Source: Paludibacteraceae bacterium
GTDB taxonomy: Bacteria > Bacteroidota > Bacteroidia > Bacteroidales > Paludibacteraceae
Direction of reading: 5' to 3'
Length of the DNA stretch: 64,000 nucleotides
NCBI GenBank assembly: GCA_034090015.1
Contig: JAXDTJ010000018.1
Coordinates: forward strand, 41,740-105,739
The position numbers were made by a program, and so were the translations under genes. Positions 14,190 through 52,377 of this stretch are shown one piece after another (the first letter of the stretch is position 1; each line of letters begins with the position of its first letter). The notes beneath the pieces were generated by a model. It made no database searches. It was given only the letters and a program-made list of their open reading frames with translations, and had not been told where the DNA came from.

Positions 14190-14223
14190 CTTTTTAACGT
14201 ATCATTCTCACTTGCTTTCCTTT

Positions 14224-29200: not shown

Positions 29201-32200
29201 CACGGCACTACGATCCACAAGACCATAGAGGTGGAGCGCGGACAGGGTTACGACTTCGAGGACATCACGCTCCTCCTGCGCTCTACCTGCGATATCATGG
29301 AGTATGCCCTCGCCGCCTTCTCCGTCCATTTCGTACCTGCCGCCACCCCTGTCTCCATGCCTACCCCGCATGACCAATGGGTGCTTAACACGCAGTCCGC
29401 ACGCGACTCCGCAGGCTACTACCTACCCGTCTCCATCGACGGCTTCGACATCCACTCCGACGGCTTCGACCATATCGAGTTGCAGTACAAGCCCCACACC
29501 GCCTCCGATGCTGATTGGGTGAACATCTGCTCCTACTACGTCTCCGACAGCCTCTACGAGCAGGCATCGGGCACCAAGCAGCGTATCGCGGGCAGCAAGA
29601 TAGACAACATCCGTTTCTACGGCGGGCGCGACCCCATGGAGCAGGAGTACGACCTCCGTGCTATGGCGTTCGCACGCTACGGCAACGGCTTCGTTACTCG
29701 CGCCTCGGAGGTGCTCCACGGCGTGAAAGACACACGCCGACCCGAACTCTTCGGCACCCCAACGCCTGCCGACGGCATACTTTCCGTAGGCGATGTGCTC
29801 TCGCTGCGTTTCAGCGAACCCATTGCAGGAAACCTATTGGACGAGGATGTTAATTTCGAGGTGATTGGTACGGATGATGTTCTCTCACTCACCACCTCCC
29901 TCCATTTCACAGGCGAATTCTCTTGCTACGCCCGCACAAAGGTTACCCGCAACATGAACGCCCGACCCTTCACCATTGAGGCAATGATTAAACCTACCGG
30001 AAATGCAGCCTTGCAAACCATCTTCGCGCTGGACAACGAGAAAGAGCCTCTGTGGTTCGCATGGGCGGGAGACCATCTCGAAGCACAGATAGGAAAAGTG
30101 CGACTGCAATCCGCCACCGTAGAGCCTATCCTCGACTTCACACGAGTAGCACTTACCTACAACCTGGAGGACTCTATTGCCCGATTCTTTGTTGGAACAC
30201 AAGAGATTAATTATGAATTAAGAATTAAGAATTATGAGCATTCCGAGCACTCCGATAACTCCGAACACTCCGATTACTCAGCAACCAACGCGAAGCCGTC
30301 GTACCATAGTGCTGCTCAACTGATTTGGGGTAACAATGCTACTTATGATGCTCCCTTCCAAGGGGATATGTTGGAAGCACGACTATGGACGAAAGCACTC
30401 ACGCAAGCCGAGTTGGCGCGGTATAAAGACTGCCATCTGACGGGCTACGAGCGCGAACTGGTGGCATATTACCCGATGAACGAAGGGAAAGGCACTACTT
30501 GCGAGGACAAAGCCAATGGTGCCACCCTCACCCTTAACGGCACCTCGTGGGTACTGCCCGAAGGTATGTCTATCCACTTGAACGGCGCAGAGCCTATCTG
30601 TCTCAACGGCGACCTGCTCAGCCGCTCCGACATCGAAGACCTGACCCTGCTCTTCTCCTTCAAGGCAGACGAAAACCTCGCTGATACATCTGAACTCCTG
30701 CATGCAGGCAAGCATACCATGCACCTTACCTCGGATGCCTTGCTATGGAGAACCGACAGCACCGAACGCCGTGCACCGGGGGCTTTTGCAGATGCTCAGT
30801 GGCACCAGTTGGTGGTGGCTATTGACCGCACGAGGAATATAGCCTCTCTGCTTGTGGATGGCAACACACTGCTTGCCACAGCGGCTGACGACATACCCGC
30901 CTTCGCAGACAGTGTCTGGACACTGGGGCAGTCTTTCCGAGGACATATCGATGCTTTCACGCTCTTCGAACAGGCATTGCCTACCTATGTGATAGAACGC
31001 TACAACAATCTCGCACCGCAAGGAGACGAGATGGGACTTATCGCATATATGCCTTTCGGGCAGTATATCCTCCAACCCAACGGACGCTACGAGTTAGTCT
31101 ATTCGCCGGAGAACGCCCGTATCTTCCGCGATGCCGACGGGAATACGGTAGAGAAGCACCAAAAGCTGGTGATGAACAACCTCACACGCTACACCGATAA
31201 AAAGGATTTTGCACCCTTGCGTAATGGGAATGCCCGAAAGAAACTTAACTTCTCGTGGGCAAGCAATGGCGATGAACTGATGATAAACATCAACATGCCC
31301 GACCATGAGATTAACCATCGCAACCTGCTCCTGACGGTGCAGCGCGTGGAGGACCAACATGGCAACGCCATGCTCAGCCCCCACACATGGGCGGCTTATG
31401 TGCACCGGCAGCAACTGCGTTGGGACAACCCGCAGATTAACTATGAGCAACAGGTTCCTGGTTCCGAGTCTCAGGTTTCAAGTGCGCAGCCTTACACCTT
31501 CACCGCCACCATCCGCAACCACGGTGGTACTACGCGGGAGTATCATCTTAACTCCCTTCCCTCGTGGCTCACGGCGCAGCCGGCTTCCGGATTCCTTGCG
31601 CCGCTGGAGACGCAGACCATCACCTTCACTGTGGACGAAGGGCTGAACATCGGCGAATATACCGAGTATATCTACCTGACCGACGACCAACAGTTGGACG
31701 ACCGCTTGTTGCTCAACCTGCACATAAAAGCCACCTGCCCTTGGACACTCGACCAGACGGAACTCAACCGCTCCATGTCGCTAATCGGGCAGGTACAAAT
31801 ACCCGTCGAGAACGGTACAATACAAATAGATACCGACTCACAGGATATGGTGGCAGCCTTCGTTGGCGAGCAGTGCGTGGCTTTGGCTCCCGTGCGGCTG
31901 AATCAGCAGACAAAGCCGGTTACCTACATGACCATCTACGGTAACGATAGCCATGCAGGCAAGGCGCTACGCTTCCAACTCTGGCATGCCAAGAACGGCA
32001 AGGTCTATATCCTTGCCCCGAGCGAAGACATCCCCTTCCGCGCCAACGAATGTTATGGCTGCGAGGGTACACCCATCACGCTCACCGTGACCGACCGACA
32101 GGTGCAACTGCTCACGCTGCAGCCCGGGTGGAATTGGTTCAGCCTGTATCTCAAGCCCACCTATCGCTCGGACCTCACGCGCCTCTTCTGTTCATCCGAC

Positions 32201-33334
32201 GCATGGACGAACGGCGACATCATCAAGAACCCCGAAGAGCAATACTTCGCAGAATATCAGATGAATACCTCGCCAATTCGATGGTATGGTACCCTATCCA
32301 CGATACGGTACCGCAGCATTTTCTTGGCGCATGTGTCGAATCCTATTCTACTGCAGATTGAGGGCGACCGTTTGGACGATGAGGGACGCACGCTCACGCT
32401 TGAGCAGGGGTGGAACGTAATGCCCTATCTCCTGACAGAGAAGCAGTCGCTCACCGACGCCTTGGCTGACTACTACGACGATGCCTCCGAGGGCGACCTC
32501 ATCAAGAGTCGCGATGCCTTTGCTGTCTTCTCCCACGCAGGCAAGTGGGAAGGCAACCTCACATATATGCAACCCGGGCTGGGGTACATGCTCCGCCGCC
32601 TCGCACCCGACCCCTGTACCTTCACTTACTATACTTATAACCCGTTGGAACAAGGGACAGGAAGCCAGGAGTCAAGAATTAATTATGAATTAAGAATTAA
32701 GAAAAAATCGTTCGAGCGTAGCGGAGATAAGAATTATGAGGGCAACGCAAACAACGTAAACAACGCAAACAACGCAAACAACGCGCAGCCTTACACCTCT
32801 GCCACTACCATGTCGCTCATTGCCACGGTGGAATTGGAGCCGGGAGTCAAGAACCAAGAACAAAGACTAAATGGTTCCAACGATGAGATTGCAGAAACGA
32901 AGGTAATAAGTCTTTCATCCTGTGTCCTTTGTCCTTCATCCAATGAAAGCCTTACCCTCGCTGCTTATATCGGCAACAGGCTTGTGGGGGTCGGTTATCC
33001 GCAGCAGGTAGGGACAACGACAGAAGACGCTATCTTCTTCCTATCTATCGCCGATGGCGCAGAGGTGGCAAGTGGGCAGTGGCCAGTGGCCAGTGGTCAG
33101 GAGGTTAGTGGTCAGATACGCTTTGTCCTTCTCTGCAACGGCGAGCCGGTGGCACACGGCACCCAGACCTTGCCTTATCAACAAGATACGGTGGTGGGTA
33201 CCCTACGCAAACCCTATCGTATCACATTCCATACCATAGACGATATGCAAGACAAGCCGTATAAGATATTGGAAAATCAACAAATATACATTATTCGCAA
33301 TGAAAACAAATATAATATCCTTGGCGTTCATTAG
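23264..33334 (+). CDS. giant (3356 aa) secreted surface protein with FN3-like, carboxypeptidase-regulatory-like and three LamG (laminin-G_3) domains
   Basis: Signal peptide MKNRLFFLCVAMLVACGVTMA. FN3-like FLQWNPTSGSVDSFYVYRS. LamG endings IDEVRIFHRVLSQDNV, LEARLWTKALTQAEL and IDAFTLFEQALP. The frame is uninterrupted for 10 kb. Confidence 0.85.
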   Translation: MKNRLFFLCVAMLVACGVTMADNTWFEEGRNFSAYSLGQGKVHVKVLVFARGGTNNHWATTGNGGSFVYAYSSGNTVYALQYEGDNNYNCENDYKGWVKFQVKSGTVIITNSYGGNNSTTYTPSNGWVNLYLSRTGESNTPTYLEFDWYPPTVLDNRSFDLKATITDTRKYGDTWTHTWYLGSFSGLSLQAPMLYQPVFYSVGEDGQPGHGQVAIPYVVYQEPKSYTTSTTGNTTFICKERTGQLLAKTTDTVQYGFSANFTVVREDKTTTVVTSSKVDIPAFHRIYDFKAEHYVPEGMDSMWYIKTKTTLSWKVRTPWATDIMPMDMFQIQRAYHPDFSDAETLALIPYETGKGTYQWVDDTEGAMKNLRTDTIDMNIYYRVNRVSTTNWGYEGHEWVRTTAIRKNTSLTHFDSDYSNYRKADDFQETRRVLFTLETLTDLNMSYCWDERASIRVRRLAISAVDTIITERVFPGSMVRPLPPDPKRGNPYFSTLYRFDFEDVADIPCCHYEYEVYIDDSQSLLKLDDLYHRYQEPLKLTSLDLYYTDAASIATFRVSDGVYPDRIFLQWNPTSGSVDSFYVYRSTDQRQGGEEIARIAGQHYYIDTDVVPGTVYYYTLMASYLCGGTHQTQFTEQKRGSLSPYGCIRGRITYPNGTGNVGVTVRAEGISGDVASITPNYLYADSTRVVYNSTQDPVSLSGDFSIQMMVKDSDLTIVSGTGHPLLYSTDSTFRLELSGETIRFTMGNQTRLLSLRNEHSQNNDNNIFSLTLTYCAHTQTVTLYRDEQQTATATIPLHNIHSRLRFCCPYSLAPVSSYGVGIDEVRIFHRVLSQDNVRTYSRHALAGDENGLILYYKFDMLSLSDIAIPNIAKMQATDGNGMMAANNALIWDKAKNDDDYRYIHLPGDLITRFEALTDESGNYVLAGIPFANGITYSLTPTAQHGTFRYNGTSSASATITIGNTRPEATAVDFMNTDAVRFSGRILYERSTIPVKGVHFLVNGILATDATGNPVETNESGNFQFELPKAPIRVQAVKDGHCFANDGYLILNGDTLFQPTDNIDAIRFYDRTKVRLIGRIAGGNDQGLLPLGFGLSRNNLGDHICMVLELEGDNAAQIVFDPLDKTLNRLDTTIVHAIDTTQHTDISLQSKRIMIYPDPASGEFFADLFPVKYKVTQLTAQGYSTLTNEKTAMQVIDLTNKLDSQYTYYTDTIQGGAVSRPHQENYDETMVRLGDRTSLAFHDTFRHIYHSPITVTPVQSLYGMEVGYFGVERIAVQRWDGESESQSVALAKEDGTYEYLFGKPIFTEGKYTFNIYAHEDYYYNGDRNLGKHDRVMLHEGEVKIYNGMHSNTEVLTGTLDKDGVCRNMVLRADYPTYTRVDEDAARNIQVTVTYERESHTTEPLRVLVFADRREGTEAISSTTADITLYDILRDPPGSGSFATLSAGASYSASKTWALSVKAGVTLEFEKGVKYAGFVGAVTAVPGLLSAQNYNINTTTPFSIPLVYNYSINKDYSYSYSTTETIRTGSDAYHVGAKADIFMGAVENLYISTCHGMAVLDSLTYLSMAAQKENGTMRHIATARNLQGELRHLVVAPKLTLDMVQDATFCYTQEHILTTVIPKLVAQRNALVLCVDSAAARAKANQEKKRIYYTTMSPDSADFAITRGKGYDFVDPVNNTDNTPEADKVAGINRAILAWTNLIKQNEKEKVNAQYTTDKKTYSVAGGSTLTYSETVTYGSKYNEIPFNLGGSAGASNLSNLWGNAINKTIQTLLQVGGKADSITIESEAPGSKFSFSLKPIANISTQPTYAASEQKSRTYGYTLSPDRFGYMDVQVMRMKDTISDFYQNAEDTLALTGEKANGKLQSYSSFIFRQLAGASRCPWEDADSTLFYQPGTPLSIATARLENPQITIAQREISNVPADQRAIFQIALNNEQTYYTGIGAATLPFELSVMPGSNPNGLKITIDGQPLTSDPLSITLPHGTTIHKTIEVERGQGYDFEDITLLLRSTCDIMEYALAAFSVHFVPAATPVSMPTPHDQWVLNTQSARDSAGYYLPVSIDGFDIHSDGFDHIELQYKPHTASDADWVNICSYYVSDSLYEQASGTKQRIAGSKIDNIRFYGGRDPMEQEYDLRAMAFARYGNGFVTRASEVLHGVKDTRRPELFGTPTPADGILSVGDVLSLRFSEPIAGNLLDEDVNFEVIGTDDVLSLTTSLHFTGEFSCYARTKVTRNMNARPFTIEAMIKPTGNAALQTIFALDNEKEPLWFAWAGDHLEAQIGKVRLQSATVEPILDFTRVALTYNLEDSIARFFVGTQEINYELRIKNYEHSEHSDNSEHSDYSATNAKPSYHSAAQLIWGNNATYDAPFQGDMLEARLWTKALTQAELARYKDCHLTGYERELVAYYPMNEGKGTTCEDKANGATLTLNGTSWVLPEGMSIHLNGAEPICLNGDLLSRSDIEDLTLLFSFKADENLADTSELLHAGKHTMHLTSDALLWRTDSTERRAPGAFADAQWHQLVVAIDRTRNIASLLVDGNTLLATAADDIPAFADSVWTLGQSFRGHIDAFTLFEQALPTYVIERYNNLAPQGDEMGLIAYMPFGQYILQPNGRYELVYSPENARIFRDADGNTVEKHQKLVMNNLTRYTDKKDFAPLRNGNARKKLNFSWASNGDELMININMPDHEINHRNLLLTVQRVEDQHGNAMLSPHTWAAYVHRQQLRWDNPQINYEQQVPGSESQVSSAQPYTFTATIRNHGGTTREYHLNSLPSWLTAQPASGFLAPLETQTITFTVDEGLNIGEYTEYIYLTDDQQLDDRLLLNLHIKATCPWTLDQTELNRSMSLIGQVQIPVENGTIQIDTDSQDMVAAFVGEQCVALAPVRLNQQTKPVTYMTIYGNDSHAGKALRFQLWHAKNGKVYILAPSEDIPFRANECYGCEGTPITLTVTDRQVQLLTLQPGWNWFSLYLKPTYRSDLTRLFCSSDAWTNGDIIKNPEEQYFAEYQMNTSPIRWYGTLSTIRYRSIFLAHVSNPILLQIEGDRLDDEGRTLTLEQGWNVMPYLLTEKQSLTDALADYYDDASEGDLIKSRDAFAVFSHAGKWEGNLTYMQPGLGYMLRRLAPDPCTFTYYTYNPLEQGTGSQESRINYELRIKKKSFERSGDKNYEGNANNVNNANNANNAQPYTSATTMSLIATVELEPGVKNQEQRLNGSNDEIAETKVISLSSCVLCPSSNESLTLAAYIGNRLVGVGYPQQVGTTTEDAIFFLSIADGAEVASGQWPVASGQEVSGQIRFVLLCNGEPVAHGTQTLPYQQDTVVGTLRKPYRITFHTIDDMQDKPYKILENQQIYIIRNENKYNILGVH
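26897..26974. repeat. 78-nt palindromic element in-frame in giant ORF
   Basis: Arms GGAGGTGCGGTCTCCAGGCCGCACC / GGTGCGGTTAGGAGACCGCACCTCC. The left arm is identical to 62935-62959. Confidence 0.85.
30206..30280. repeat. TTAAGAATTATGA words + CACTCCGA words in-frame in giant ORF (LamG domain 2)
   Basis: ATTAATTATGAATTAAGAATTAAGAATTATGAG, then GAGCACTCCGATAACTCCGAACACTCCGATTACTC. Confidence 0.85.
32666..33115. repeat. cluster of five different word-repeat families in-frame in the giant ORF 3' region
   Basis: Five families are present: TTAAGAATT words (32675-32705); CAACGCAAA x~5 (32744-32786); AAGAACC words (32846-32865); the AAGGTAATAAGTCTTTCATCC... copy of the 58204 repeat (32897-32945); and CAGTGGC words (33070-33115). 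Confidence 0.85.
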
Positions 33335-34071: not shown

Positions 34072-34336
34072 AAATTTACGAATTACGATTTACGAATTAC
34101 GATTTTCCGTTAAAGACCATTAAAAGACCATTAAAAGTTTAAGTTATACTCCGTTAATTGCCGTTAATTATTCGTTAATTTTTTTGCCTCCATTAAAGAC
34201 CATTAAAGGTTCATTAAAGGCAAAGTTTTAATGGTTCTTTAATGGGCTTTAACGGAGAAAACAAAAAGAAATTAATGAATAATTAACGGTCATTAACGGA
34301 GAACGAAAATAATTAACGGGCATTAACGGAAAACGA
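34072..34336. repeat. word-repeat leader of polyamine operon (CGTAAAT, CCATTAAAG, CCGTTAAT words) with nested inverted repeats
   Basis: 34150-34182 is a near-perfect complement of 34270-34301. The inner pair is 34190-34220 / 34226-34247. Confidence 0.8.
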
Positions 34337-34340: not shown

Positions 34341-35228
34341 ATGGAGAATTTTGCCGGATTAAGCGGGCGTTGGGCGGACGAAAAGACCGCGCGGATAGTG
34401 GTGTTGCCTGTGCCTTATGACAAGACGAGTTCGTGGGTACACGGTGCGGAGAAGGGACCGGAAGCCTTCTTGGAGGCGAGCGTGCAGTTGGAGTGGCTGG
34501 ACACGGAGACGCGGACGGAGGTCTATCGTCAGGGTATCCATACCGCCGCGCCCGTAACGGAAGACCGCACGCCGGCGTTGCTATGCGAGGCGGTGGAAGA
34601 ACGCATGGGGGCACTATGGGACGCGGGGAAGTTCCCCTGCATGATAGGCGGCAACCACACGGTGTCTATCGGTGCTTGCCGCGCGGCGGCGAAGCGTTTT
34701 GAGGGGCTGACGGTGCTGCAATTAGACGCACACAGCGACCTGCGACCCGAATACGAGGGGTCGGAGTTGAACCACGCCTGCATCATGAAAGAGGCGCAGA
34801 AAGTGGCGAAGACGGTGCAGGTGGGGATCCGCAGCCAGTGCGTAGAAGAGGCGGAGAACGCTGCGAAGAGCACGATTATATGGGCGCGCGAGATATGGGA
34901 AGACGAGACCTTCGGGCAGCGACCTGCCTCGGCGAGCGAGAGTTGGGCGTGGGAGAAGCGGGTATATGATGCGCTGACGGAGAATGTGTATCTGACCATC
35001 GACCTCGATGTGTTCGACCCTGCTTATCTGCCCTCTACGGGTACGCCGGAGCCCGGGGGCATGGGCTACTATCAGGTGCTGCACCTGCTGCGACCTGTGT
35101 TCGAGCGATACAACGTGGTGGGGTTTGATATCGTGGAACTCTGTCCGAGCCCGACCCGCCAAGCGCATGCGTCGCAGTACCTCGCCGCACGGCTGGCATA
35201 TCAGTTGATGACATACAAATTTATTTGA
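34341..35228 (+). CDS. speB: agmatinase (arginase/ureohydrolase family)
   Basis: GGNHTVSIG, LDAHSDL and DLDVFDP Mn-binding motifs, in a polyamine gene context. Confidence 0.85.
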   Translation: MENFAGLSGRWADEKTARIVVLPVPYDKTSSWVHGAEKGPEAFLEASVQLEWLDTETRTEVYRQGIHTAAPVTEDRTPALLCEAVEERMGALWDAGKFPCMIGGNHTVSIGACRAAAKRFEGLTVLQLDAHSDLRPEYEGSELNHACIMKEAQKVAKTVQVGIRSQCVEEAENAAKSTIIWAREIWEDETFGQRPASASESWAWEKRVYDALTENVYLTIDLDVFDPAYLPSTGTPEPGGMGYYQVLHLLRPVFERYNVVGFDIVELCPSPTRQAHASQYLAARLAYQLMTYKFI

Positions 35229-35305
35229 CAATTGGACAATTTACAATTTGACAATTATGCGCCGCATGGCTAATTGTAAAATTGTCAATTGTAAAATTGT
35301 AAAAT
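35224..35305. repeat. GACAATTT-word hairpin between speB and nspC
   Basis: Loop TGCGCCGCATGGC. The speB TGA lies inside the first word. Confidence 0.85.
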
Positions 35306-35311
35306 GATACC

Positions 35312-36553
35312 ATGTTTCCCAATCCTTGCTACATAGTGGAAGAGCGGCTTCTGCACCGTAACCTCGCGCTGATAAAGCGCGTGGCGGATGAGACGGGCGT
35401 GGAGATAATCTTGGCATTCAAGGCGTTTGCGCTTTGGAAGACTTTCCCTATCTTCCGTGAGTATATTCAGCATACCACGGCTTCGAGTGTCTATGAGGCG
35501 CGGCTGGCATACGAGCAATTCGGTGCCCCCGCGCACACCTATAGCCCCGCCTACACGGAGGAGAACTTCCCCGAGTTTCTGCGGTATTCGAGCCATATCA
35601 CGTTCAATAGTTTGAGTCAGTGGGAGAGATTTGGAAGGATCCAAGAACCAAGAACCGAGAACCAAGAGGGGAGAGTCTCTTTCGGCATACGTATTAACCC
35701 TGAGTATTCGGAGATAGAGACCTTGCTCTACAATCCTACGGCGCCCGGGTCGCGGTTTGGCGTGCTGGCGGAGCAGTTGGAGACCTATTGCGAGGCGCGT
35801 GGCGGGAGGCTGCCCGAAGGATTGGAGGGCTTTCATTGCCACTGCCATTGCGAGGATGATTCCTACACTTTCGAGCGGACGCTGCAACACATAGAGGCGA
35901 AGTTCGGCAAGTGGTTCCCGCAGTTGCAATGGCTCAACCTCGGCGGCGGGCACCTGATGACCCGCAAGGACTACGATGTGGAGCATCTGATAGGGTTGCT
36001 CAAAGGACTGCGCAGCCGCTATCCGCACCTGAAGATACTGCTTGAGCCCGGCAGCGCGTTTGCTTGGCAGACGGGTGTGCTGACGAGCAAGGTGGTGGAT
36101 ATCGTGGAGAACCACGGTATACGGACGGCAATACTGAACGTGTCGTTTGCCTGCCACATGCCCGACACGCTGGAGATGCCCTATCAACCGGCAGTGAGGG
36201 GAGCAAGACCCACCCCTCCCCTCCCTGAAGCCACCCCACTACGCGTTGCTTGTGGGGACCCCGGAAAGGGAGGGAGTGAAGACCCCCGCGAGGTAGGGAG
36301 TGAAGAGGGGTATCGGTATCGCCTTGGGGGCAATAGTTGTCTGTCGGGGGACTGGATAGGCGATTGGGTGTTTGACCACGAGTTGCAGATTGGGGAGGAG
36401 ATAATCTTTGAGGATATGATTCACTACACCACGGTGAAGACGCACATGTTCAACGGCATTGCTCATCCCTCGCTGGGAATACGCCGCGAAGACGGCACGG
36501 AGGAAGTGCTCCGCACATTTGATTACGAAGATTACTTGAATAGGATGGACTGA
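35312..36553 (+). CDS. nspC: carboxynorspermidine/carboxyspermidine decarboxylase
   Basis: N-terminus PCYIVEERLLHRNLALIK...ILAFKAF (PLP Lys), then LGG.SCLSGD and HYTTVKTHMFNG blocks. It carries two repeat-derived in-frame inserts. Confidence 0.85.
   Translation: MFPNPCYIVEERLLHRNLALIKRVADETGVEIILAFKAFALWKTFPIFREYIQHTTASSVYEARLAYEQFGAPAHTYSPAYTEENFPEFLRYSSHITFNSLSQWERFGRIQEPRTENQEGRVSFGIRINPEYSEIETLLYNPTAPGSRFGVLAEQLETYCEARGGRLPEGLEGFHCHCHCEDDSYTFERTLQHIEAKFGKWFPQLQWLNLGGGHLMTRKDYDVEHLIGLLKGLRSRYPHLKILLEPGSAFAWQTGVLTSKVVDIVENHGIRTAILNVSFACHMPDTLEMPYQPAVRGARPTPPLPEATPLRVACGDPGKGGSEDPREVGSEEGYRYRLGGNSCLSGDWIGDWVFDHELQIGEEIIFEDMIHYTTVKTHMFNGIAHPSLGIRREDGTEEVLRTFDYEDYLNRMD
35637..35671. repeat. 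AAGAACC words in-frame in nspC
   Basis: GGATCCAAGAACCAAGAACCGAGAACCAAGAGGGG. The same word occurs at 32846. Confidence 0.75.
36205..36312. repeat. GC-rich repeat block in-frame in nspC
   Basis: Contains CACCCCACTACGCGTTGCTTGTGGGGACCCCGG, which matches 38593-38630 (CACCCCACTGCGCGTTGCTTGCGGGGACCCCGC). Confidence 0.8.
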
Positions 36554-36560
36554 TATTAAA

Positions 36561-36645
36561 CTTGTAATTTGTAATTTTTAATTTGTAATTTTTAATTGCC
36601 ATTCGGCGAAAATAATTACAAATTAAAAATTAAACATTAAAAATT
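36561..36645. repeat. TGTAATTT-word hairpin between nspC and speA
   Basis: Left arm CTTGTAATTTGTAATTTTTAATTTGTAATTTTTAATT, loop GCCATTCGGCGAAA, complementary right arm. Confidence 0.85.
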
Positions 36646-36647
36646 GC

Positions 36648-38546
36648 ATGAAACGCTGGCATATAAAAGATAGTGCAGAACTGTACAACCTGCAGGGTTG
36701 GGGCGTGAACTATTTCGATATCAACGAGAAAGGGCACATGGTGGTTACCCCCAAGAAAGATGACAATCAGATAGATATCCGCGAACTGATTGACGAGTTG
36801 GCATTGCGCGACATTCAGCCGCCCGTGCTGCTGCGTTTCTCGGATATCATCGAGAACCGTATCGAGCGCATGAACGAATGCTACGAGCATGCCGCGAAAG
36901 AGTACGGCTACAAGGGCGAATGCTTCTTGGTGTATCCTATCAAGGTCAACCAGATGCAGCCCGTGGTGCACGAGATAGTGAGCCACGGCAAGAAGTTCAA
37001 TATCGGGCTGGAGGCAGGCAGTAAGCCGGAGTTGCACGCCGTGATAGCCGTCAATCAGGAGCCCGACTCCATCATCATCTGCAACGGCTACAAAGACGAG
37101 GCGTATATTGAGTTGGCTTTGCTCGCGCAGAAGATGGGCAAGCATATCTATATCGTTGCTGAGAAACTGAACGAGTTGGAACTCATTGCAAAAGTGTCGG
37201 AGCGGCTGGGTGTGCGCCCGAACATCGGCATCCGCATCAAGTTAGCGTCGGTAGGCTCGGGCAAGTGGGAAGAGTCGGGCGGCGATGCGTCGAAGTTCGG
37301 ACTGACCAGCAGCGAGTTGCTGGAAGCCCTCGAGACGCTGGACGCGCACCGGATGCACGACTGTCTGAAACTGATACACTTCCATATCGGCAGCCAAATC
37401 ACCAACATCCGCAACGTGAAGACGGCTATCCGCGAGGCGGCGCAGTACTACGTGCAACTGCACAAATTAGGTTTCCCCGTGGAGTTTGTGGATGCCGGCG
37501 GCGGGCTGGGCGTGGACTACGACGGCACGCGGTCGAGCAACTCAGAGTCGTCGGTCAACTACTCTATCCAAGAGTACGTCAACGATATCATGTACGGGCT
37601 GATAGAGGCGGCGGACAAGAACAACCTGCCGCACCCGAATATCATCACCGAGTCGGGGCGCTCGCTCAGTGCCCACCACACGGTGCTCATCATGGAGGTG
37701 CTGGAGACGGCGCACCTACCCGAGATGCCCGAAGAATGGGAGGTAGGCGAAGGCGACCACCAGTTGGTGAAAGACCTGTACGAGATTTGGGACAACCTCA
37801 CGCAACGGTCTGCGTTGGAGAGTTGGCACGATGCGGAGCAGATACGCGACGAGGTGGTGGAACTGTTCAGCCACGGGCTCATTGACCTGCGCACCCGCGC
37901 ACAGATAGAGAAACTCTATTGGTCGGTAACGCGCGAGATAGCCTCGCTCGCCAACCAGATGCGGCGCGTGCCCGAGGAGTTGGAGAAAGTGAATAAACTA
38001 TTGGCAGACAAGTACTTCTGCAATTTCTCGCTCTTCCAATCCATGCCCGACACATGGGCTATCGACCAAGTGTTCCCCATCATGCCTATCCAACGGCTCG
38101 ATGAGATGCCCGACCGCCATGCGACGATACAAGACATCACCTGCGACTCCGATGGCAAGGTGCAGAAATATGTCTCGGAGGGGACGCTGACGAAATCGCT
38201 GCCCGTGCATTCGTTGCGCAAAGGCGAGCCCTACTACATTGGTGTCTTCCTCGTGGGGGCGTACCAGGAAATCTTGGGAACTATCCACAACCTCTTCGGC
38301 GATGTTACCGCCGTGCATATCGCGATGAAAGACGAGGGCTACTCCATCGAGCAGACCATCGATGGCGAGAGCGTGCAGGATGTGCTGCGCTGGACGGAGT
38401 ACGATGTGAAGAAGATGGTGCGCACGCTGGAGACTTGGGTAACGAAGTCGGTGAAAGCAGGGAAAATCACCCTCGCCGAGGGCAAAGAGTTCCTCTCCAA
38501 CTACCGCTCCGGATTGTACGGATATACCTATTTGGAAAGGGAATAA
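36648..38546 (+). CDS. speA: biosynthetic arginine decarboxylase
   Basis: 632 aa. WGVNYFDINEKGH start, YPIKVNQ PLP-lysine block, HFHIGSQ, and C-terminal GYTYLE. Confidence 0.9.
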   Translation: MKRWHIKDSAELYNLQGWGVNYFDINEKGHMVVTPKKDDNQIDIRELIDELALRDIQPPVLLRFSDIIENRIERMNECYEHAAKEYGYKGECFLVYPIKVNQMQPVVHEIVSHGKKFNIGLEAGSKPELHAVIAVNQEPDSIIICNGYKDEAYIELALLAQKMGKHIYIVAEKLNELELIAKVSERLGVRPNIGIRIKLASVGSGKWEESGGDASKFGLTSSELLEALETLDAHRMHDCLKLIHFHIGSQITNIRNVKTAIREAAQYYVQLHKLGFPVEFVDAGGGLGVDYDGTRSSNSESSVNYSIQEYVNDIMYGLIEAADKNNLPHPNIITESGRSLSAHHTVLIMEVLETAHLPEMPEEWEVGEGDHQLVKDLYEIWDNLTQRSALESWHDAEQIRDEVVELFSHGLIDLRTRAQIEKLYWSVTREIASLANQMRRVPEELEKVNKLLADKYFCNFSLFQSMPDTWAIDQVFPIMPIQRLDEMPDRHATIQDITCDSDGKVQKYVSEGTLTKSLPVHSLRKGEPYYIGVFLVGAYQEILGTIHNLFGDVTAVHIAMKDEGYSIEQTIDGESVQDVLRWTEYDVKKMVRTLETWVTKSVKAGKITLAEGKEFLSNYRSGLYGYTYLERE

Positions 38547-38560
38547 AAGCCCCTGCGAGG

Positions 38561-38710
38561 CCCAGGACCCCCTCCTACTCCCCCTACAAGAGCACCCCAC
38601 TGCGCGTTGCTTGCGGGGACCCCGCGAGGGGGAGAGTATAAAATAACTATTGTATAACTAAAACTAATTTCCCAACTCCCTCCCTTGTAGGGAGGGTTGG
38701 GGAGAGTCCT
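38561..38710. repeat. GC-rich composite palindrome between speA and the dehydrogenase gene
   Basis: CCCCTACAAGAG on the left and CTCCCTTGTAGGGAGGG on the right. It ends at the ATG at 38711. Confidence 0.75.
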
Positions 38711-39964
38711 ATGAATCGAGTATTATTGATTGGCTGTGGAGGTGTAGGCACCGTGGCAGCCCACAAGTTGGCTCAGAATCCCGATGTGTTCGGTGAGATT
38801 TGTATCGCGAGCCGCACCAAGTCGAAATGTGATGCGACGGCGGAGGCTATCCGCGCGAAGCACTACACGAAGAACGGCTTGCAGTCTGTCATCACCACCG
38901 CGCAAGTGGATGCCGACGATGTGGCAGCGCTGGTGGCGCTGATGAAGGAGTACAAGCCCGCACTGTGTATCAACCTTGCACTTCCCTACCAAGACCTGAC
39001 CATCATGGACGCTTGTCTGGAAGCAGGGGTGCACTACATGGACACCGCCAACTACGAGCCGAAAGATGAGGCGCACTTTGAGTATTCATGGCAGTGGGCT
39101 TATCGCGAGCGTTTTGAGAAAGCAGGGCTCTGCGCGCTGCTCGGCTGCGGCTTCGACCCGGGCGTAACCTCCATCTTCACTGCCTATGCGGCGAAGCACT
39201 ACTTCAAGGAGATTCACTACCTCGACATCGTGGACTGCAACGCGGGCAACCATCACAAAGCATTCGCCACCAACTTCAACCCCGAAATCAACATCCGCGA
39301 GATTACCCAAAAGGGACTCTACTGGGAGAACGGCGCTTACCACGAGACGGAGCCGATGGAGATTCACAAGACGCTCCACTATCCGAATATCGGTCCGAAG
39401 GAGAGTTACCTGCTCCACCACGAGGAGATAGAGTCGCTCGTCATCAACTACCCGACCATCAAGCGTGCGCGCTTCTGGATGACCTTCGGACAGCAGTATC
39501 TGAACTACCTCGACGTGATTCAGAACATCGGCATGGCGCGTATCGATGAGATAGAGTACAAAGCGCCGAAAGCCGATGGCACGGGCGATGAAGTGGTGAA
39601 GATAGTGCCCTTGCAGTTCCTGAAAGCCGTGCTGCCGAACCCCAAGGAGTTGGGCGAGAACTACGACGGCGAGACCTCTATCGGTTGCCGTATCCGCGGC
39701 ATCGGCAACGACGGGCAGGAGCACACCTACTATGTCTGGAACAACTGCTCCCACCGTGCTGCTTACGAGGAGACGGGCATGCAGGGCGTCAGTTACACCA
39801 CGGGCGTGCCGGCGATGATTGGCGCGATGATGATGCTCACGGGCAAGTGGCTCCGCGCGGGTGTGCACAACGTGGAAGAGTTCGACCCCGATCCCTTCAT
39901 GGAGATGCTCAACGTCCACGGACTGCCCTGGCACGAGGAGCACGACGGAGATTTGGAACTGTAA
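38711..39964 (+). CDS. carboxynorspermidine/carboxyspermidine dehydrogenase (saccharopine dehydrogenase family)
   Basis: VLLIGCGGVGTVAAHKL Rossmann start, ~415 aa, clustered with nspC/speA/speB. Confidence 0.85.
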   Translation: MNRVLLIGCGGVGTVAAHKLAQNPDVFGEICIASRTKSKCDATAEAIRAKHYTKNGLQSVITTAQVDADDVAALVALMKEYKPALCINLALPYQDLTIMDACLEAGVHYMDTANYEPKDEAHFEYSWQWAYRERFEKAGLCALLGCGFDPGVTSIFTAYAAKHYFKEIHYLDIVDCNAGNHHKAFATNFNPEINIREITQKGLYWENGAYHETEPMEIHKTLHYPNIGPKESYLLHHEEIESLVINYPTIKRARFWMTFGQQYLNYLDVIQNIGMARIDEIEYKAPKADGTGDEVVKIVPLQFLKAVLPNPKELGENYDGETSIGCRIRGIGNDGQEHTYYVWNNCSHRAAYEETGMQGVSYTTGVPAMIGAMMMLTGKWLRAGVHNVEEFDPDPFMEMLNVHGLPWHEEHDGDLEL

Positions 39965-39966
39965 AA

Positions 39967-40063
39967 ACAATTTGAAAGTTAACAATTTGAAAATTTGAAA
40001 ATGACGATGCAGAATTAATCATTTTCAAATTTTCAAATTTACAAATTTACAAATTTTCAAATT
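39967..40063. repeat. TTTGAAAA-word hairpin between dehydrogenase and GT2 genes
   Basis: TTTGAAAATTTGAAAATGA - loop - TCATTTTCAAATTTTCAAA... Confidence 0.85.
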
Positions 40064-40071: not shown

Positions 40072-41028
40072 ATGGATATATCAATTATTGTTCCCTTGTA
40101 CAACGAGGCAGAGTCGCTGCCGAAACTCTATGAATGGATAGTGCGCGTGATGAAAGAGCACGGGTACACCTATGAGATACTGTTTGTGAACGATGGCAGT
40201 ACGGATGCGTCGTGGCAAGTGATAGAAGACCTCGCCAAATCAGCAGCGGAAGGCACTGTGCACGGTATCTCTTTCCGCCGCAATTACGGCAAGTCGGCTG
40301 CTCTCTACTGCGGCTTCCAAGCCGCACAAGGCGAGGTCGTCATCACGATGGATGCCGACCTGCAAGACTCGCCCGACGAGATACCCGAACTCTATCGCAT
40401 GATTACCGAGGACGGTTTCGACCTCGTGAGCGGCTGGAAACAAAAACGCTATGATAACAAACTGACCAAGAACTTGCCGAGCAAACTCTTCAACGCGACG
40501 GCTCGGCGGGTTACCGGTATTGCGCTCCACGACATGAACTGCGGGCTGAAAGCCTATCGGCAGGAGGTAGTGAAGAACATCGAGGTCTTCTCGGAGATGC
40601 ACCGCTATATCCCGTACCTCGCTAAGAATGCGGGATTCACCAAGATTGGCGAGAAAGTGGTGCAACATCGCAAGCGTGAGTTCGGGGTATCGAAGTTCGG
40701 GTTGAGCCGCTTCGTGAACGGCTACCTCGACCTACTCACGCTGTGGTTCCTCAATAAGTTCGGCAAGCAGCCCATGCACTTCTTCGGGCTAATTGGCAGC
40801 CTGATGTTCTTCATCGGACTGGTGGCGGTGATAGTGGTAGCGGGAATGAAAGTGCATGCGCTGGCAAACGGTATTCCCGCCATGCTGATAGGCGTCAATC
40901 CCTACTTCCACATCGCCATCCTGATGATGATTCTCGGCTGCATGCTCTTCCTCGCAGGTTTCTTAGGCGAACTCATCATCCGCAACTCCGGCGAACGCAA
41001 CAACTACCTGATTGGGAAAAGAATATAA
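40072..41028 (+). CDS. family 2 glycosyltransferase (polyprenyl-phosphate sugar transferase-like, two C-terminal TM helices)
   Basis: ISIIVPLYNE, VNDGSTD and TMDADLQD motifs. The C-terminus is hydrophobic. Confidence 0.85.
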   Translation: MDISIIVPLYNEAESLPKLYEWIVRVMKEHGYTYEILFVNDGSTDASWQVIEDLAKSAAEGTVHGISFRRNYGKSAALYCGFQAAQGEVVITMDADLQDSPDEIPELYRMITEDGFDLVSGWKQKRYDNKLTKNLPSKLFNATARRVTGIALHDMNCGLKAYRQEVVKNIEVFSEMHRYIPYLAKNAGFTKIGEKVVQHRKREFGVSKFGLSRFVNGYLDLLTLWFLNKFGKQPMHFFGLIGSLMFFIGLVAVIVVAGMKVHALANGIPAMLIGVNPYFHIAILMMILGCMLFLAGFLGELIIRNSGERNNYLIGKRI

Positions 41029-41128
41029 CATTTGACAATTTGACAATTTACTATTTTACAATTAACCATGCGGCGCATAGTTGTCAAATTGTAAATTGTC
41101 AAATAGTCAAATAGTAAATTGTCAAATA
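41029..41128. repeat. GACAATTT-word hairpin between GT2 and hypothetical gene (inverted copy of the 35224 family)
   Basis: The loop CCATGCGGCGCATAG is the reverse complement of the 35258 loop. Confidence 0.85.
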
Positions 41129-42334
41129 ATGAAGCTTTCCGAGCAAGTAAATACCGTAGAGAGGGCATTGGGTGAACGCATGATTACCCATGCGATGGTG
41201 ATTGTGCGCCAATGGGCAAATGAGTTGGGCGATGAACTGTGTACAGGGCGGATTGACCAACTGGAGCAGAACTATCGCTATGTCTTCGATTATTACCTCT
41301 CTACCGAAGACCCCGATAGAGACGCTTTGCTCGACAAGATGACCGGCGAGGCTTATCGCATCACCGATGAGGTCTATGCCGCCCTGCGCGTGAAGCGCGG
41401 CATGTCGCCCGATATGCACGGCTTCAACCCCCGCAACCCCCAGAGCGTGATGCACTATTTCAGTTCCTGCGTGCAACTGAAGCCGGAGGACCTGCAATGG
41501 TTGCAGCAAGCAGCGCAGTATGAGCACTCTGCCGCCATCGCTATTGCCGCCTCTGCGGCGTTGGCACAGAACCTGCGCGAGTGCTTCAACGAAGCGGCGA
41601 TGCTGGCACTCATCGATGTGGCAAACGCCGACAACGGGCTGGTGGCTGACCAAGCGCTCGCTAACCTCATCCTGCTGCTTGCACACTACGATGTGCGTAT
41701 TGACTTTTTCCCCAATATACAAGACGCTTTTATGGAGCCGTTGGGCGATGGCACACGCGCTTTTGAAACGATGTGCGCCATCATACGCTCCACCAAGATG
41801 AATCTCCGCGATGTGCTGGCGTCAGGACAACTCTCTTTCGACGACCTGCCCGACGCACTCAAAGACTTGCTTGGCAGCACCGGCGACACTCCCGACATAG
41901 AGTCCATCGAGTCGTGGATGCCTGCATCGGAGAACGAGTATATGGCAGGGATTACCTCCATCCTGCCCGACACATGGGTGTATGCCGTCATCGTAGGGGA
42001 CAACGCGGAGCGCGAAGAGAAAGTAGCACTCACCTACTTGACAGTCGGAAAGATGGATATGCTGTGGGACAACCTCGAACCGGCGGAAGGCTGGCTCACT
42101 CAGCGTCTCTGCTCCGAGCAAGCCGCGCCTATCGACTATATCAACTACGGGCATTGCTGCTTCGTACGAGGCGACCGCATGATGGCGTATGAGAACTACC
42201 GCGAGGCGCGCAGCCGCTGCAAATCCGCCAAAGAGTTCTTCGCCCTCTTCCGCCCCGACAGACATTTCCTATTAGAGAAAGGCATACCCGTAGAGCAAAT
42301 CTACCTGATGGAAGACCAATTGCTGCGGTCGTAA
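41129..42334 (+). CDS. hypothetical protein (401 aa)
   Basis: Long ORF with host-like composition. The ATG at 41129 is chosen because the track start at 41081 lies inside a word repeat. I recognise no motif. Confidence 0.55.
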   Translation: MKLSEQVNTVERALGERMITHAMVIVRQWANELGDELCTGRIDQLEQNYRYVFDYYLSTEDPDRDALLDKMTGEAYRITDEVYAALRVKRGMSPDMHGFNPRNPQSVMHYFSSCVQLKPEDLQWLQQAAQYEHSAAIAIAASAALAQNLRECFNEAAMLALIDVANADNGLVADQALANLILLLAHYDVRIDFFPNIQDAFMEPLGDGTRAFETMCAIIRSTKMNLRDVLASGQLSFDDLPDALKDLLGSTGDTPDIESIESWMPASENEYMAGITSILPDTWVYAVIVGDNAEREEKVALTYLTVGKMDMLWDNLEPAEGWLTQRLCSEQAAPIDYINYGHCCFVRGDRMMAYENYREARSRCKSAKEFFALFRPDRHFLLEKGIPVEQIYLMEDQLLRS

Positions 42335-42348
42335 AAAGACAAATCAAT

Positions 42349-42392
42349 AAAGAGGCGGTCTAACAACTCCAAATTAGGCAGTCTCTTTTTTC
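42349..42392 (+). terminator. degenerate terminator-like hairpin after hypothetical gene (left copy of island-flanking repeat)
   Basis: AAAGAGGCGGTCTAACAACTCCAAATTAGGCAGTCTCTTTTTT. The stem is imperfect and a T-run is present. Confidence 0.4.
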
Positions 42393-42454
42393 TTGATTTA
42401 TTACATTTTTTGTGAAAAAGTGTATATTTATTTGCAAATATAAAAAATAAGCAG

Positions 42455-42462
42455 TATCTTTG
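42455..42462 (+). promoter_or_regulatory. -7 box TATCTTTG for LRR surface-protein operon
   Basis: AATAAGCAGTATCTTTGC context, 266 nt before the ATG at 42729. Confidence 0.45.
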
Positions 42463-42496
42463 CATTATAATTTAGTAGCACTTCGCTATTTCCGTA

Positions 42497-42538
42497 GTGT
42501 ATCAGTTTAGACGTTCGTCTAAACTGATACACTTTTTT
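42497..42538 (+). promoter_or_regulatory. leader hairpin 1 + T6 (terminator/attenuator-like) downstream of the LRR operon promoter
   Basis: Perfect 16-bp stem GTGTATCAGTTTAGAC-GTTC-GTCTAAACTGATACAC followed by TTTTTT. Confidence 0.6.
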
Positions 42539-42570
42539 ATGCCTTTTTCATTCTATTTTTCGGTCTTTTA

Positions 42571-42613
42571 GTGTGTAAGTTTAGACGTTCCTCTAAACTA
42601 TCTCACTTTTTTG
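42571..42613 (+). promoter_or_regulatory. leader hairpin 2 + T6, diverged copy of hairpin 1
   Basis: GTGTGTAAGTTTAGACGTTCCTCTAAACTATCTCAC followed by TTTTTT. Confidence 0.5.
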
Positions 42614-42728
42614 TTTAACCTCTTTGTTTTCATCCTAATACATAAAACTATTTAGTCATCAAAAAAAACGATAGAGACACTATTGAGTATAATCATTTTT
42701 TTTAACCATAATAAATCAAATTAAAATT

Positions 42729-45700: not shown

Positions 45701-46379
45701 CCCCGTTGACCAATCTTCTATTACTTTCGACCAAGAAGGTCGTCAAGATTGTTGGTACACGCGCGTAAAATCGGATAAGGCTCCCATGCGTGTGGCAGCA
45801 AACGCAAACCGAAAAGTATTCAATATCGTTATGACAAGAGATTCGATAGAGGATCATACGCGTATAGTGCTCAACGATGATGCTTTGCTCGCATACGAGT
45901 TGGATAAAGATGCTTCCAAATTGATGGCTGATAATAATGCTGCTATGTTGCTCTATAGTGTTCACGATGGTGTACGCTATGCCATCAACGAGCGTCCTAT
46001 GGACAACGGAAAGGTAAGTTTAGGTTTCTTTGCACCTGAGGAAGGAGATTTCGAACTCTCTCTCAACACAACAGAAAGTGGCAATGTTATCTTGATGGAT
46101 AGTCTCACCAATACTATGACTACTCTGACCGGCAGTTACCGTTTCCATTCCGTAGCAGGTTACCACAATACCCGTTTAACCCTTGTATTCGAAACACCCA
46201 CCGAACTCAATCGCGCGGTTATCGGCAGCGATGGAAGTCTGTTGCATCAATCGGCTCAAATCTATTCAGTGGATGGTCGATGGATAGGGAATTATTATGA
46301 TGGCTGCATCAACAACTTGAATGCAGGTATTTACCTCATTATCGGACAGGATGTTAAACGCAAAATAATTGTGAAATAA
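42729..46379 (+). CDS. BspA-type leucine-rich-repeat surface protein with T9SS type-A C-terminal domain (1216 aa)
   Basis: Signal peptide. Two N-terminal OB-like modules. LRR units of the form IGNYAFSGCKKLKSISL and IGQYAFS. The C-terminus NLNAGIYLIIGQDVKRKIIVK looks like a T9SS CTD. Confidence 0.8.
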   Translation: MKKLFTVCVALVVAMTMTAENMTCSDAATAALALGGGVTATDSVTVTGYVSVLKGDVSTKYETPQQQFCMDDTKGSNAETLLIYWANIPEEFRESLTSLNVGDKVSVTGLLCHYVKSGVSIPELVNGNVKMLERNEVEIDTLDMTTCEVIAAAEALNADEYLDEVIIVSGLVSAVSSTSERQQTFEMTCDDNNKIFQAYNVAVTEPVFVGDSVIVVGKVKNYNGIIEAHGGKAYITKKGEVKHGPIVVTSNSSSGISNACFTATLEDGTILGFYSYFPDLGYDDDFVFCGAISQRTELTIPDSVIFNSISYPVTKIGCYNNGNRAYQCDLSNATSVKSVILPSTIAYIYDLPSTVEDLHINSDVSWYNGTKTLQNLSKLYVPADLYNPIMGNANMRNYVIILEEGQEPIRITINMTTAGEFAQLLLQQTDNNWYHVHELTVTGPLNANDLNVFKRMKQLQKLDLSNAVIADIPNNFNGATGYRGNSSDMNLLEELSLPSINNIGNYAFSGCKKLKSISLTSVNSIGQYAFSYLGAPHISLPEGTTSIGTNAFYYSNITGIDLPSTLTSIGDYAFAYSELKSIEIPSPITDVSAYCFYECDSLVSVSLPISTQQIKSYAFSNCENLTAINLQELINLKSIESYAFNGCYALKEIELAGSLRNINSGTFGGCYNIKSVKSYAVIPPSGNSTYSLLDGCDYTGVTLYVPAMSIAAYRAAAGWSDFYTVLPLEEQINNLYIYDFATIADVSEFSTDCNVTLGWEYLSRNGYSSMFYGALTYNDTATFSMHNYRQYQDLGSSSSSYPYAVNPIFTSLVANGPMRADSVQTTLITKSTYDWYFISLPYDVQVADITYSEGAQFVIRKYSGYNRAQQAGATWQNLTTDSVMHAYEGYILKCNLQDASFTFPAINNAHKNNMFQKGDAVVPLNEYLSEFEHNRSWNLIGNPYPCWYDSRYMDFSAPISVWNRYYDRYDAFSPVDDSFILQPSQAFFVQCPVDQSSITFDQEGRQDCWYTRVKSDKAPMRVAANANRKVFNIVMTRDSIEDHTRIVLNDDALLAYELDKDASKLMADNNAAMLLYSVHDGVRYAINERPMDNGKVSLGFFAPEEGDFELSLNTTESGNVILMDSLTNTMTTLTGSYRFHSVAGYHNTRLTLVFETPTELNRAVIGSDGSLLHQSAQIYSVDGRWIGNYYDGCINNLNAGIYLIIGQDVKRKIIVK

Positions 46380-52351: not shown

Positions 52352-52377
52352 GCCAAGCGATAACTCATAGAGGCGCG

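Follow-up and report, generated by a model that had tools for sequence, protein, structure and literature searches.

The stretch of DNA analysed here (the window) is 64,000 nucleotides (nt) long and comes from a Paludibacteraceae bacterium (assembly GCA_034090015.1, contig JAXDTJ010000018.1, positions 41,740 to 105,739 of the forward strand). It contains a polyamine cluster in which the genes for agmatinase, nspC, speA and carboxynorspermidine synthase (CASDH) follow one another (Table 1). The nspC gene encodes a carboxy(nor)spermidine decarboxylase (CASDC), and the original prediction held that two inserts within it derive from repeats. The sequences, coordinates and translations given for both inserts were all correct on recheck. 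A repeat origin stands for insert 2, which is built of nested, dispersed palindromic modules, whereas for insert 1 it holds only in a weak sense. All of the sequences compared are metagenome-assembled genomes (MAGs); L numbers denote loci, and P numbers denote homologues of the nspC product.

Is nspC a working gene? Its family identity is secure. The open reading frame (ORF) scores 460.2 bits against the TIGR01047 nspC profile (equivalog cutoff, 409.05), with residues 3-411 spanned, and the closest solved CASDC structure is 36gy_A (E 1.8e-178). The 413-residue product is 100% identical to an NCBI entry from Paludibacteraceae bacterium named “MAG: carboxynorspermidine decarboxylase.” The ratio of nonsynonymous to synonymous substitution rates (dN/dS) relative to related genes is 0.07-0.15, so nspC is an intact gene under strong purifying selection. 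The AFK lysine, the GGGH and EPGS motifs, and the NSCLSGD cysteine loop are invariant columns in the alignment of homologues. A catalytic role for these residues agrees with general knowledge of the fold. The same assignment comes from the Clostridium leptum structure paper (PMC11866407). An AlphaFold 2 (AF2) model of the product, with a mean predicted local distance difference test (pLDDT) score of 72.8, shows the two domains of the solved enzymes, a beta/alpha-barrel and a beta-barrel, and matches the folds of 9eaf (TM 0.82-0.83) and 3n29 (TM 0.80), both normalised on the target. The low dN/dS suggests, indirectly, that the enzyme carrying the inserts stays functional.

Table 1. Positions in the window of the nspC inserts, their component repeats and surrounding features, with the arms of the outer hairpin types
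Feature	Positions	Strand	Remarks
Agmatinase gene	34341-35228		polyamine cluster
nspC (carboxy(nor)spermidine decarboxylase) coding sequence, host of both inserts	35312-36553	+	TIGR01047, PDB 36gy_A, dN/dS
Insert 1, variable loop between SQWERF helix and SFGIRIN strand	35637-35671	+	GGATCCAAGAACCAAGAACCGAGAACCAAGAGGGG, reads IQEPRTENQEG
Insert 2, whole (codons 299-333), alpha9/beta12 loop	36206-36310	+	coding RPTPPLPEATPLRVACGDPGKGGSEDPREVGSEEG
C-tract left arm of type-A outer element	36209-36226	+	CCCACCCCTCCCCTCCCT; last 8 nt form the left stem
32-nt core module in hairpin loop	36232-36263	+	CACCCCACTACGCGTTGCTTGTGGGGACCCCG; inner stem CCCCAC/GTGGGG
24-nt tandem duplication (x2.1)	36257-36306	+	Tandem Repeats Finder (TRF); second unit GACCCCCGCGAGGTAGGGAGTGAA
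Right stem of outer hairpin	36267-36274	+	AGGGAGGG; pairs with 36219-36226 over 40-nt loop
speA	36648-38546		887 bits to NF003763
Spurious ORF through spacer copy	38435-38641	+	reads STPLRVACGDP; overlaps 3' end of speA in another frame
Second core copy, non-coding, in type-B hairpin	38578-38634	+	CTCCCCCT/AGGGGGAG; core at 38593-38624, in loop
“Empty” type-A hairpin in speA/CASDH spacer	38678-38696	+	CCCTCCCT-TGT-AGGGAGGG
CASDH gene	38711-39964		polyamine cluster
AT-rich spacer hairpins	34179-34301, 35223-35305, 36559-36648, 39966-40057, 41022-41127, 11581-11676, 14216-14354		
Outer hairpin type A			CCCTCCCT/AGGGAGGG
Outer hairpin type B			CTCCCCCT/AGGGGGAG
Outer hairpin type C			CCCCGCCCC…/GCGGGGCGGGGGAG
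Outer hairpin type D			CCCGC/GCGGG
Outer hairpin type E			CCCTTCCCT/…AGGGAG

Insert 2 is a nested DNA composite. An outer hairpin with the arms CCCTCCCT and AGGGAGGG holds a 32-nt core, CACCCCACTRCGCGTTGCTTGYGGGGACCCCG, in its loop, and a decayed duplicate follows. The loop as a whole reads GAAGC + CACCCCACTACGCGTTGCTTGTGGGGACCCCG + GAA (40 nt). The second unit of the tandem duplication, GACCCCCGCGAGGTAGGGAGTGAA, is similar to the 3' half of a core-plus-type-B element (compare 38615-38636 and site 2 of L008). A sequence contained in insert 2 had been said to recur in the spacer between speA and the dehydrogenase gene; indeed, the 30-mer CCCCACTRCGCGTTGCTTGYGGGGACCCCG occurs twice in the window, at 36234 and 38595, and not once in 100 shuffles. 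An ORF reading PLRVACGDP through the spacer copy is also present as described. It runs out of frame over the end of speA (stop at 38546), and it is therefore not a gene.

At the protein level, insert 2 separates two blocks that the original prediction took to be nearly contiguous in the family. This is the case in 36gy_A, a structure of the Bacteroides type, and in C. leptum 9eaf, where …VRGA runs directly into the YRLGGNSC block. The HMMER match to these two structures splits at query residues 298/329, leaving ~30 residues of insert 2 unmatched, and a relative at 91% identity has no insert 2. The blocks are not contiguous in C. jejuni 3n29, which has ~11 residues more than 36gy_A in this loop by HMMER comparison, or in Akkermansia (PMC11866407). 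The alpha9/beta12 loop lies directly after the specificity helix and outside the dimer interface, and natural insertions of 27 residues in Akkermansia CASDC and 6 residues in C. jejuni CASDC have been described there (PMC11866407). Characterised or modelled CASDCs thus do have additional segments there, which goes part of the way towards the refuting observation named with the original prediction, and the position is a known permissive loop rather than a special one. The location of insert 2 is ordinary for a CASDC; the special part is the origin of its DNA. In the AF2 model, residues 304-330 have pLDDT below 50 and no secondary structure, which suggests that the peptide, rich in Pro, Gly, Ser, and Glu, forms a disordered surface loop. 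A third variable spot in nspC lies at 35777-35806 (residues ~156-165, ETYCEARGG), with 7 residues more than 36gy_A; the more distant Bacteroidales homologues P0034 and P0037 have ~25 extra residues there.

What do close relatives carry at these two sites? With the inserts set aside, the homologues are 84-92% identical; their lengths run from 385 to 454 residues, and their differences are almost confined to sites 1 and 2, for which the DNA of seven close relatives was compared. Site 2 is empty in L004, where AAGCGAGGAGAAGGCAAAGGCTTTGTG codes for KRGEGKGFV, with the length found in Bacteroides. At site 2 of L003 lies a simple hairpin whose loop is 4 nt long, CCCTCCCT-ACAA-AGGGAGGG; in the window, the loop of this hairpin measures 40 nt, the extra 36 nt bringing in the core. 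At site 1, the same core sits in the same kind of hairpin in L001 (P0011), and the hairpin is empty in L003 and L008. One composite of ~75 nt occupies both sites in L005, an element of the form GGTGCGG…GGAGACCGCACCTCC occupies both sites in L006, and in L008 a CTCCCCCT/AGGGGGAG hairpin encloses a second core variant. Insert 1 of P0002 is that of the window and its insert 2 is a different one, while P0062, an independent assembly at 95% identity, has insert 2 as in the window. The site-1 loop therefore does host dispersed elements in close relatives.

Insert 1 of the window is itself a different matter. It contains the heptamer CCAAGAA in 3.9 tandem copies (35641-35667, 90% matches by TRF), and it is “repeat-derived” only in this weak, internal sense. 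It is just 4 residues longer than the corresponding segment of 36gy_A, the loop is variable in all homologues, and no dispersed copies were found in the window or in 81 related loci. Site 1 is the loop that leads from a helix into strand beta6 and, judged from the barrel topology, probably points away from the active site; residues 113-116 have pLDDT below 50 and no secondary structure in the AF2 model. Could a heptamer array within a coding sequence act as a phase-variation switch, with 7-nt slippage shifting the frame and turning nspC off and on? The unit length is not a multiple of three, as such a switch would need. The copies are few and imperfect, however, L004 and L007 have a site of equal length with degenerate sequence, and no frameshifted alleles were seen among the homologues, making a switch highly improbable.

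Heptamer tandem repeats are characteristic of the spacers of this genome. Almost every intergenic spacer contains a long AT-rich hairpin with arms of tandem 7-8-nt repeats (TTGTAAT, AATTGTC, AATTTGA, and similar); the arms at 36559-36648, 35223-35305, 39966-40057, and 41022-41127 are made of heptamer tandem repeats. Across the window, stems of 8 bp or longer number 84, where shuffles give an expectation of 33. Given the heptamers in the spacer hairpins, kinship of insert 1 with them is plausible, although unproven. Repeat DNA also enters other ORFs of the window. The ORF at 41081-42334 (+) begins with MSNCKLSNSQIVNCQIMKL; these residues translate the upstream hairpin repeat (41078-41127), and the true start of the ORF is therefore probably further downstream. 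A 3356-residue ORF with a Laminin_G_3 domain (23264-33334, +) has in-frame repeat DNA at 26900-26980, 30206-30280, 32648-32788, and 33056-33115. It includes a palindrome of the GGTGCGG…GGAGACCGCACCTCC family, which is also seen at nspC sites in L001 and L006, runs of AATTATG/AATTAAG heptamers that read INYELRIKNYE (the same repeat as in the intergenic hairpin at 11581-11676), and runs of AACGCAAAC and GGCCAGT. Separately, positions 42000-54000 have a lower G+C content (0.41-0.46 vs ~0.53) and contain two very long ORFs (42729-46379, 1216 residues; 46379-52351, 1990 residues); this block is possibly foreign DNA.

The core of insert 2 is a dispersed, modular repeat. A scan with an exact pattern, using one genome per GTDB species, found 79 copies in 73 loci of ~14 assemblies, with up to 16 copies per MAG, nearly all in Paludibacteraceae/Bacteroidales MAGs from the gut of pig, human, goat, and sheep. 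The core stays constant while its surroundings vary: it is found in either orientation, in the loops of at least five types of outer hairpin (Table 1, types A to E). Arms of 7 nt or more with perfect complementarity flank 59 of the 79 copies, and 4 have no arms. A second core variant, CACCCC-AAAAATC-NNN-GATTTTTC-GGGGACCCCG, occurs in the same outer hairpins; it keeps the ends (CACCCC…GGGGACCCCG), and its interior is a perfect AAAAATC-NNN-GATTTTT hairpin with a variable loop. In L078 (~3290-3450), at least four cores lie in tandem with a period of 42 (core + CAGAGAG), reading HPTARCLRGHRRE repeatedly, so the module can also amplify in tandem. Two copies with different flanks are in a bin labelled “Azospirillum sp. 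CAG:239” (L017 7959-7983 and L059 3092-3116), which could reflect mis-binning or a wider host range. A phage origin has no support, as a scan of viral contigs for the core gave 0 matches.

The second core copy of the window, in the speA/CASDH spacer, has orthologous copies in L064 and L076. Type-B elements regularly precede a conserved AT-rich module, approximately ATTAGTTTTAGTTAGACAATAGTTAT, in either orientation (L010-L012, L019, L023, L032, L043, L049, L052, L060, L064, L073, L076, and the window at 38636-38670). Spacers of the polyamine cluster are entirely unlike between close relatives, both for speA-CASDH (L001 7255-7420, L005 7347-7682, L006 7258-7520, L007 7252-7626) and for nspC-speA (L001 and L004-L008). 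Some are arrays in which small GC hairpins (GCCC-NNNN-GGGC) and TGTAAAAAACTTCGTGTAG alternate, with the inverted counterparts coming next.

Most core copies (~72%) are intergenic, and 22 of 78 are intragenic, defined as at least 45 nt inside an ORF of at least 150 residues, with crude gene calls. Pfam confirms ten of the host ORFs as members of real families in which the domain continues on either side of the insert: Metallophos, SSF, alpha-amylase, HAD+APH, PLD, HemN-type radical SAM, a methyltransferase, Mur-ligase/FolC type, CCA-adding/HD, and Maf. Between them, the hosts read the core in all six frames (TPLRVACGDP, PHCALLAGTP, HPTARCLRGP, GVPASNAQWG, GSPQATRSGV, GPRKQRAVG); conservation is at the level of the DNA and not of the peptide. 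This bears on whether insert 2 is an adaptation, with residues after alpha9 selected to tune substrate choice, regulation, or protein contact of NspC. The insert does directly follow alpha9, a helix with a presumed role in choosing substrates by length; for the 27-residue insertion that Akkermansia has in this loop, an influence on the tuning of alpha9 has been suggested (PMC11866407); and insert 2 is kept in P0062. Against this, relatives at 84-92% identity have unrelated sequence or none at the site, it is the palindrome in the DNA that is conserved, the same DNA lies in non-coding spacers and in unrelated proteins in every frame, and the segment is predicted to be disordered. An adaptive origin is therefore improbable.

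Pairs of filled and empty alleles show what the units are. In an SSF transporter gene, L027 has the empty hairpin …CCCTACCCTCCCT-ACAA-AGGGAGGGAGAAAAT…, and L069, with identical flanks, has GAAGC + core + GAA in the loop and is longer by 36 nt. Elsewhere in this gene, L027 has the core within a type-C hairpin at a position where L069 has a GGTGCGG-family element. In an APH-family gene, L075 and L084 have a bare 39-nt insertion between GGTGAT and TATTGG, with the core on the minus strand, coding V/F-GVPASNAQGGEG; L082 and L083, at 91-94% protein identity to them, have the gene without the insertion. ACCTT is repeated directly near both ends of this insertion in L075, and TATCG lies on both sides of another bare core copy in L066. 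These alleles, the bare insertion among them, indicate that the core is a unit able to arrive alone and that the outer hairpins are separate units. Where orthologous filled copies are shared by different species-level MAGs, the element is 92-100% identical and the flanks 73-99%; across such divergence, many copies must be old and stably inherited.

Do these hairpins act as RNA, for example as stabilisers, processing sites, or translational pauses in the polyamine-operon transcript? The variable pair of the inner stem (position 7) is A-T in 36 copies, A.C in 36, G-C in 6, and C.C in 1. On the complementary strand, this pair is standard, counting G.T, in all but one copy, which hints that the minus strand of the core is the strand that folds. 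The equivalent argument, with G.U pairs, has been used for transcribed repetitive extragenic palindromes (REPs) (PMC3733652), and many of the copies here lie just downstream of genes. The strand with standard pairs is antisense to nspC, however, and orientation relative to genes is random: 12 intragenic copies are sense and 10 antisense, and the intergenic copies are flanked by 14 co-directional, 11 opposite, 8 convergent, and 3 divergent arrangements. This lack of bias led to the rejection of a simple terminator or mRNA element. A permissive E-value scan of 35200-38800 against Rfam gave only noise, and the fold z-scores of the copies reach only modest values (-1.0 to -2.6), since C/G-tract sequence folds well even when shuffled. 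Overall, a function at the RNA level is unlikely.

We consider it probable that the inserts are passengers at the DNA level, i.e., selfish or neutral palindromic DNA similar to REPs and Rickettsia palindromic elements (RPEs), tolerated in disordered loops and not evolved as features of the protein. For insert 1, this label rests on what neighbours carry at site 1. The lineage has several families of very small hairpin-forming repeats, which fill its intergenic spacers and are also found, in-frame and free of stops, in loops of many housekeeping proteins. In nspC, the loops tolerating them are those before beta6 and between alpha9 and beta12. At site 2 of the window genome, the outer C-tract/G-tract hairpin was probably inserted first, its loop later acquiring the core, a separate mobile unit that is also seen bare and in the loops of four or more further kinds of hairpin; next to the core lies one element end, partly duplicated. 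The encoded peptide would form a disordered surface loop, leaving the enzyme functional. Once present, a hairpin may become a hot spot for nesting and for replacement by other elements, which would account for the confinement of differences between close relatives to these two sites.

How might copies spread? The sequences themselves show the anatomy and dispersal of the elements, the filled and empty alleles, the intragenic copies and the purifying selection. As for spread, we infer that it proceeds via an enzyme that recognises hairpins in single-stranded DNA, i.e., an HUH transposase like the REP-associated tyrosine transposases (RAYT/TnpA_REP), by copy-choice between copies, or by both. 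Bacteroidetes have TnpA_REP subclasses 2.4 and 2.6, and those of subclass 2.6 have atypical secondary structures on their flanks, which are found again elsewhere in the genome (PMC6006769). By analogy, a Bacteroidetes TnpA_REP is a plausible candidate mobiliser. Recombination without a dedicated enzyme is a serious alternative, and there is an appreciable, if smaller, chance that it is the whole explanation. Here, hairpin and G-tract DNA would stall replication, leading to template switching or gene conversion between dispersed copies. The replacement of a loop in place between identical flanks (L027/L069) fits gene conversion or copy-choice as well as it fits transposition. Mosaic nspC alleles such as P0002, the ability of one element family to occupy both sites of one gene, partial tandem duplications, and the 5-nt microhomologies near bare copies (ACCTT in L075, TATCG in L066) all point the same way. 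So does a G-quadruplex-type motif on the minus strand of the type-A left arm at 36209-36226 and of both core copies in the window, although the window overall shows no enrichment of such motifs (4 vs 2.6 expected), and the G-quadruplex was dropped as a general feature for that reason. Recombination does not account for first arrivals where there is no homology, of which the APH-family gene with its bare 39-nt insertion is one example, nor for core ends that stay sharp and constant in five different contexts. A bolder proposal, which we put forward only tentatively, is that the core (32 nt; 39 nt as inserted) is among the smallest independently mobile DNA modules known, that it prefers single-stranded hairpin loops and is moved by an uncharacterised HUH/RAYT-like enzyme of Bacteroidota, and that with its host hairpins it forms a nested system that continuously remodels the surface loops of core enzymes.

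Several points weigh against the passenger interpretation or its mechanism. First, in the SSF pair, the 4-nt loop is replaced and not simply split, and there is no target duplication; more generally, of the models of a clean target-site duplication of 3, 5, or 8 nt applied to the filled/empty pairs, none fits all. Second, no Y1 HUH transposase was found in the 619 kb of sampled loci, which are only ~2% of these genomes, a sample too small for this absence to be informative; the search combined phmmer, with IS200/IS608 TnpA queries, and regular expressions for the HUH/Y motifs of subclasses 2.4 and 2.6 (PMC6006769). Third, going by sequence divergence, the activity of the elements is not demonstrably recent. 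Fourth, the near-invariance of the core is partly built in and inflated by the exact search pattern. Fifth, insert 1 of the window has no dispersed relative. Sixth, every sequence derives from metagenome assemblies, and two core copies lie in the bin labelled Azospirillum; an artefact of assembly or binning would nevertheless have to produce the same insert in the independent assemblies P0001 and P0062, orthologous copies in several MAGs, and reading frames that are intact throughout, which leaves it with a negligible probability.

What are the implications of repeat DNA inside these genes? First, the range of selfish palindromic DNA within protein genes, so far Rickettsia plus a few Proteobacteria and Verrucomicrobia rich in REPs, would come to include abundant gut Bacteroidales. 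Second, the natural filled/empty pairs, i.e., the bare 39-nt insertion and the loop with or without the core, are useful for learning how tiny modules move. Third, odd loops of low complexity in MAG proteins (PLRVACGDP, GVPASNAQWG, PTPSLP…KGGS, NSPLKGEN, and similar) and spurious ORFs in spacers should be annotated as repeat DNA and not as functional motifs. Fourth, for enzymology, two loops of CASDC are marked as accepting 10-50 extra residues. In-gene selfish palindromic DNA is itself already known; what is new here is the nested architecture, the invariant core residing in a loop, and the phylum. Palindromic repeats of this family in coding genes of Paludibacteraceae or Bacteroidetes were without description in the literature searched.

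The classic precedent is the RPEs (Ogata et al. 2000). As reviewed (PMC10969869), RPEs are in-frame palindromic repeats in many unrelated metabolic and housekeeping genes whose proteins stay functional, with several families per genome and copies also in non-coding DNA. The elements described here are similar in that the same repeat is in-frame in ten unrelated, Pfam-confirmed hosts, and in that uninserted orthologues exist for nspC, the SSF transporter gene, and the APH-family gene. They differ in size and reading. According to the same review, RPEs are ~100-150 bp long, and each family gives one conserved peptide in one frame (PMC10969869), whereas the modules here are 20-75 nt long (core 32 nt), are read in six frames, are nested, and occur in free-living gut Bacteroidota. 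Judged on size alone (32 nt vs ~150 bp), homology to RPE families is unlikely.

A second group of relevant systems comprises REPs and their composites, REP doublets forming hairpins (REPINs) and bacterial interspersed mosaic elements (BIMEs), together with RAYTs. These are 20-40-nt palindromes with several families per genome in mosaic combinations (PMC3733652, PMC3116915, PMC6006769). They lie mostly downstream of genes, and some add 20-30 residues to proteins, sometimes twice per ORF; intragenic cases are known in Opitutus, Thauera, Xanthomonas, and Rickettsia (PMC3733652). G.T pairs in the stems and the existence of related Y1 HUH enzymes in Bacteroidetes are further similarities. With respect to REPs sensu Di Nocera 2013, the core is a short palindrome with many dispersed, mostly intergenic copies, and it is without the GTAG/CGTC end tag; GTAG REPs have not been reported in Bacteroidetes (PMC3733652). 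The tag is absent from the canonical position, the core ending in CACCCC… and …GGGGACCCCG; GTAG turns up only where loop and stem join, on the minus strand of two kinds of hairpin, empty type A and type B. Conservation here lies in the loop-resident core rather than in the stem, and no RAYT was located in the 619 kb sampled. [quoted passage not shown] We know of no parent insertion sequence (IS) for them.

Other comparisons concern individual aspects. Elements of the IS1397/ISKpn1 type insert into the loops of REP palindromic units and thus also represent mobile DNA targeting the loop of a pre-existing hairpin, although they are full-length insertion sequences with a transposase. Cyanobacteria have nested small dispersed repeats (~20-30 nt) and genome-wide heptamer short tandemly repeated repetitive (STRR) sequences. 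Very small nested repeats and heptamer tandems are thus common to both, whereas the sequences are unrelated, and we know of no systematic in-frame insertion of the cyanobacterial repeats into enzymes. Finally, the alpha9/beta12 insertions of Akkermansia and C. jejuni CASDC occupy the same loop, outside the dimer interface, in active enzymes, with no reported link to repeat DNA (PMC11866407). Here, by contrast, near-identical orthologues differ in the insert, which can be traced to dispersed elements.

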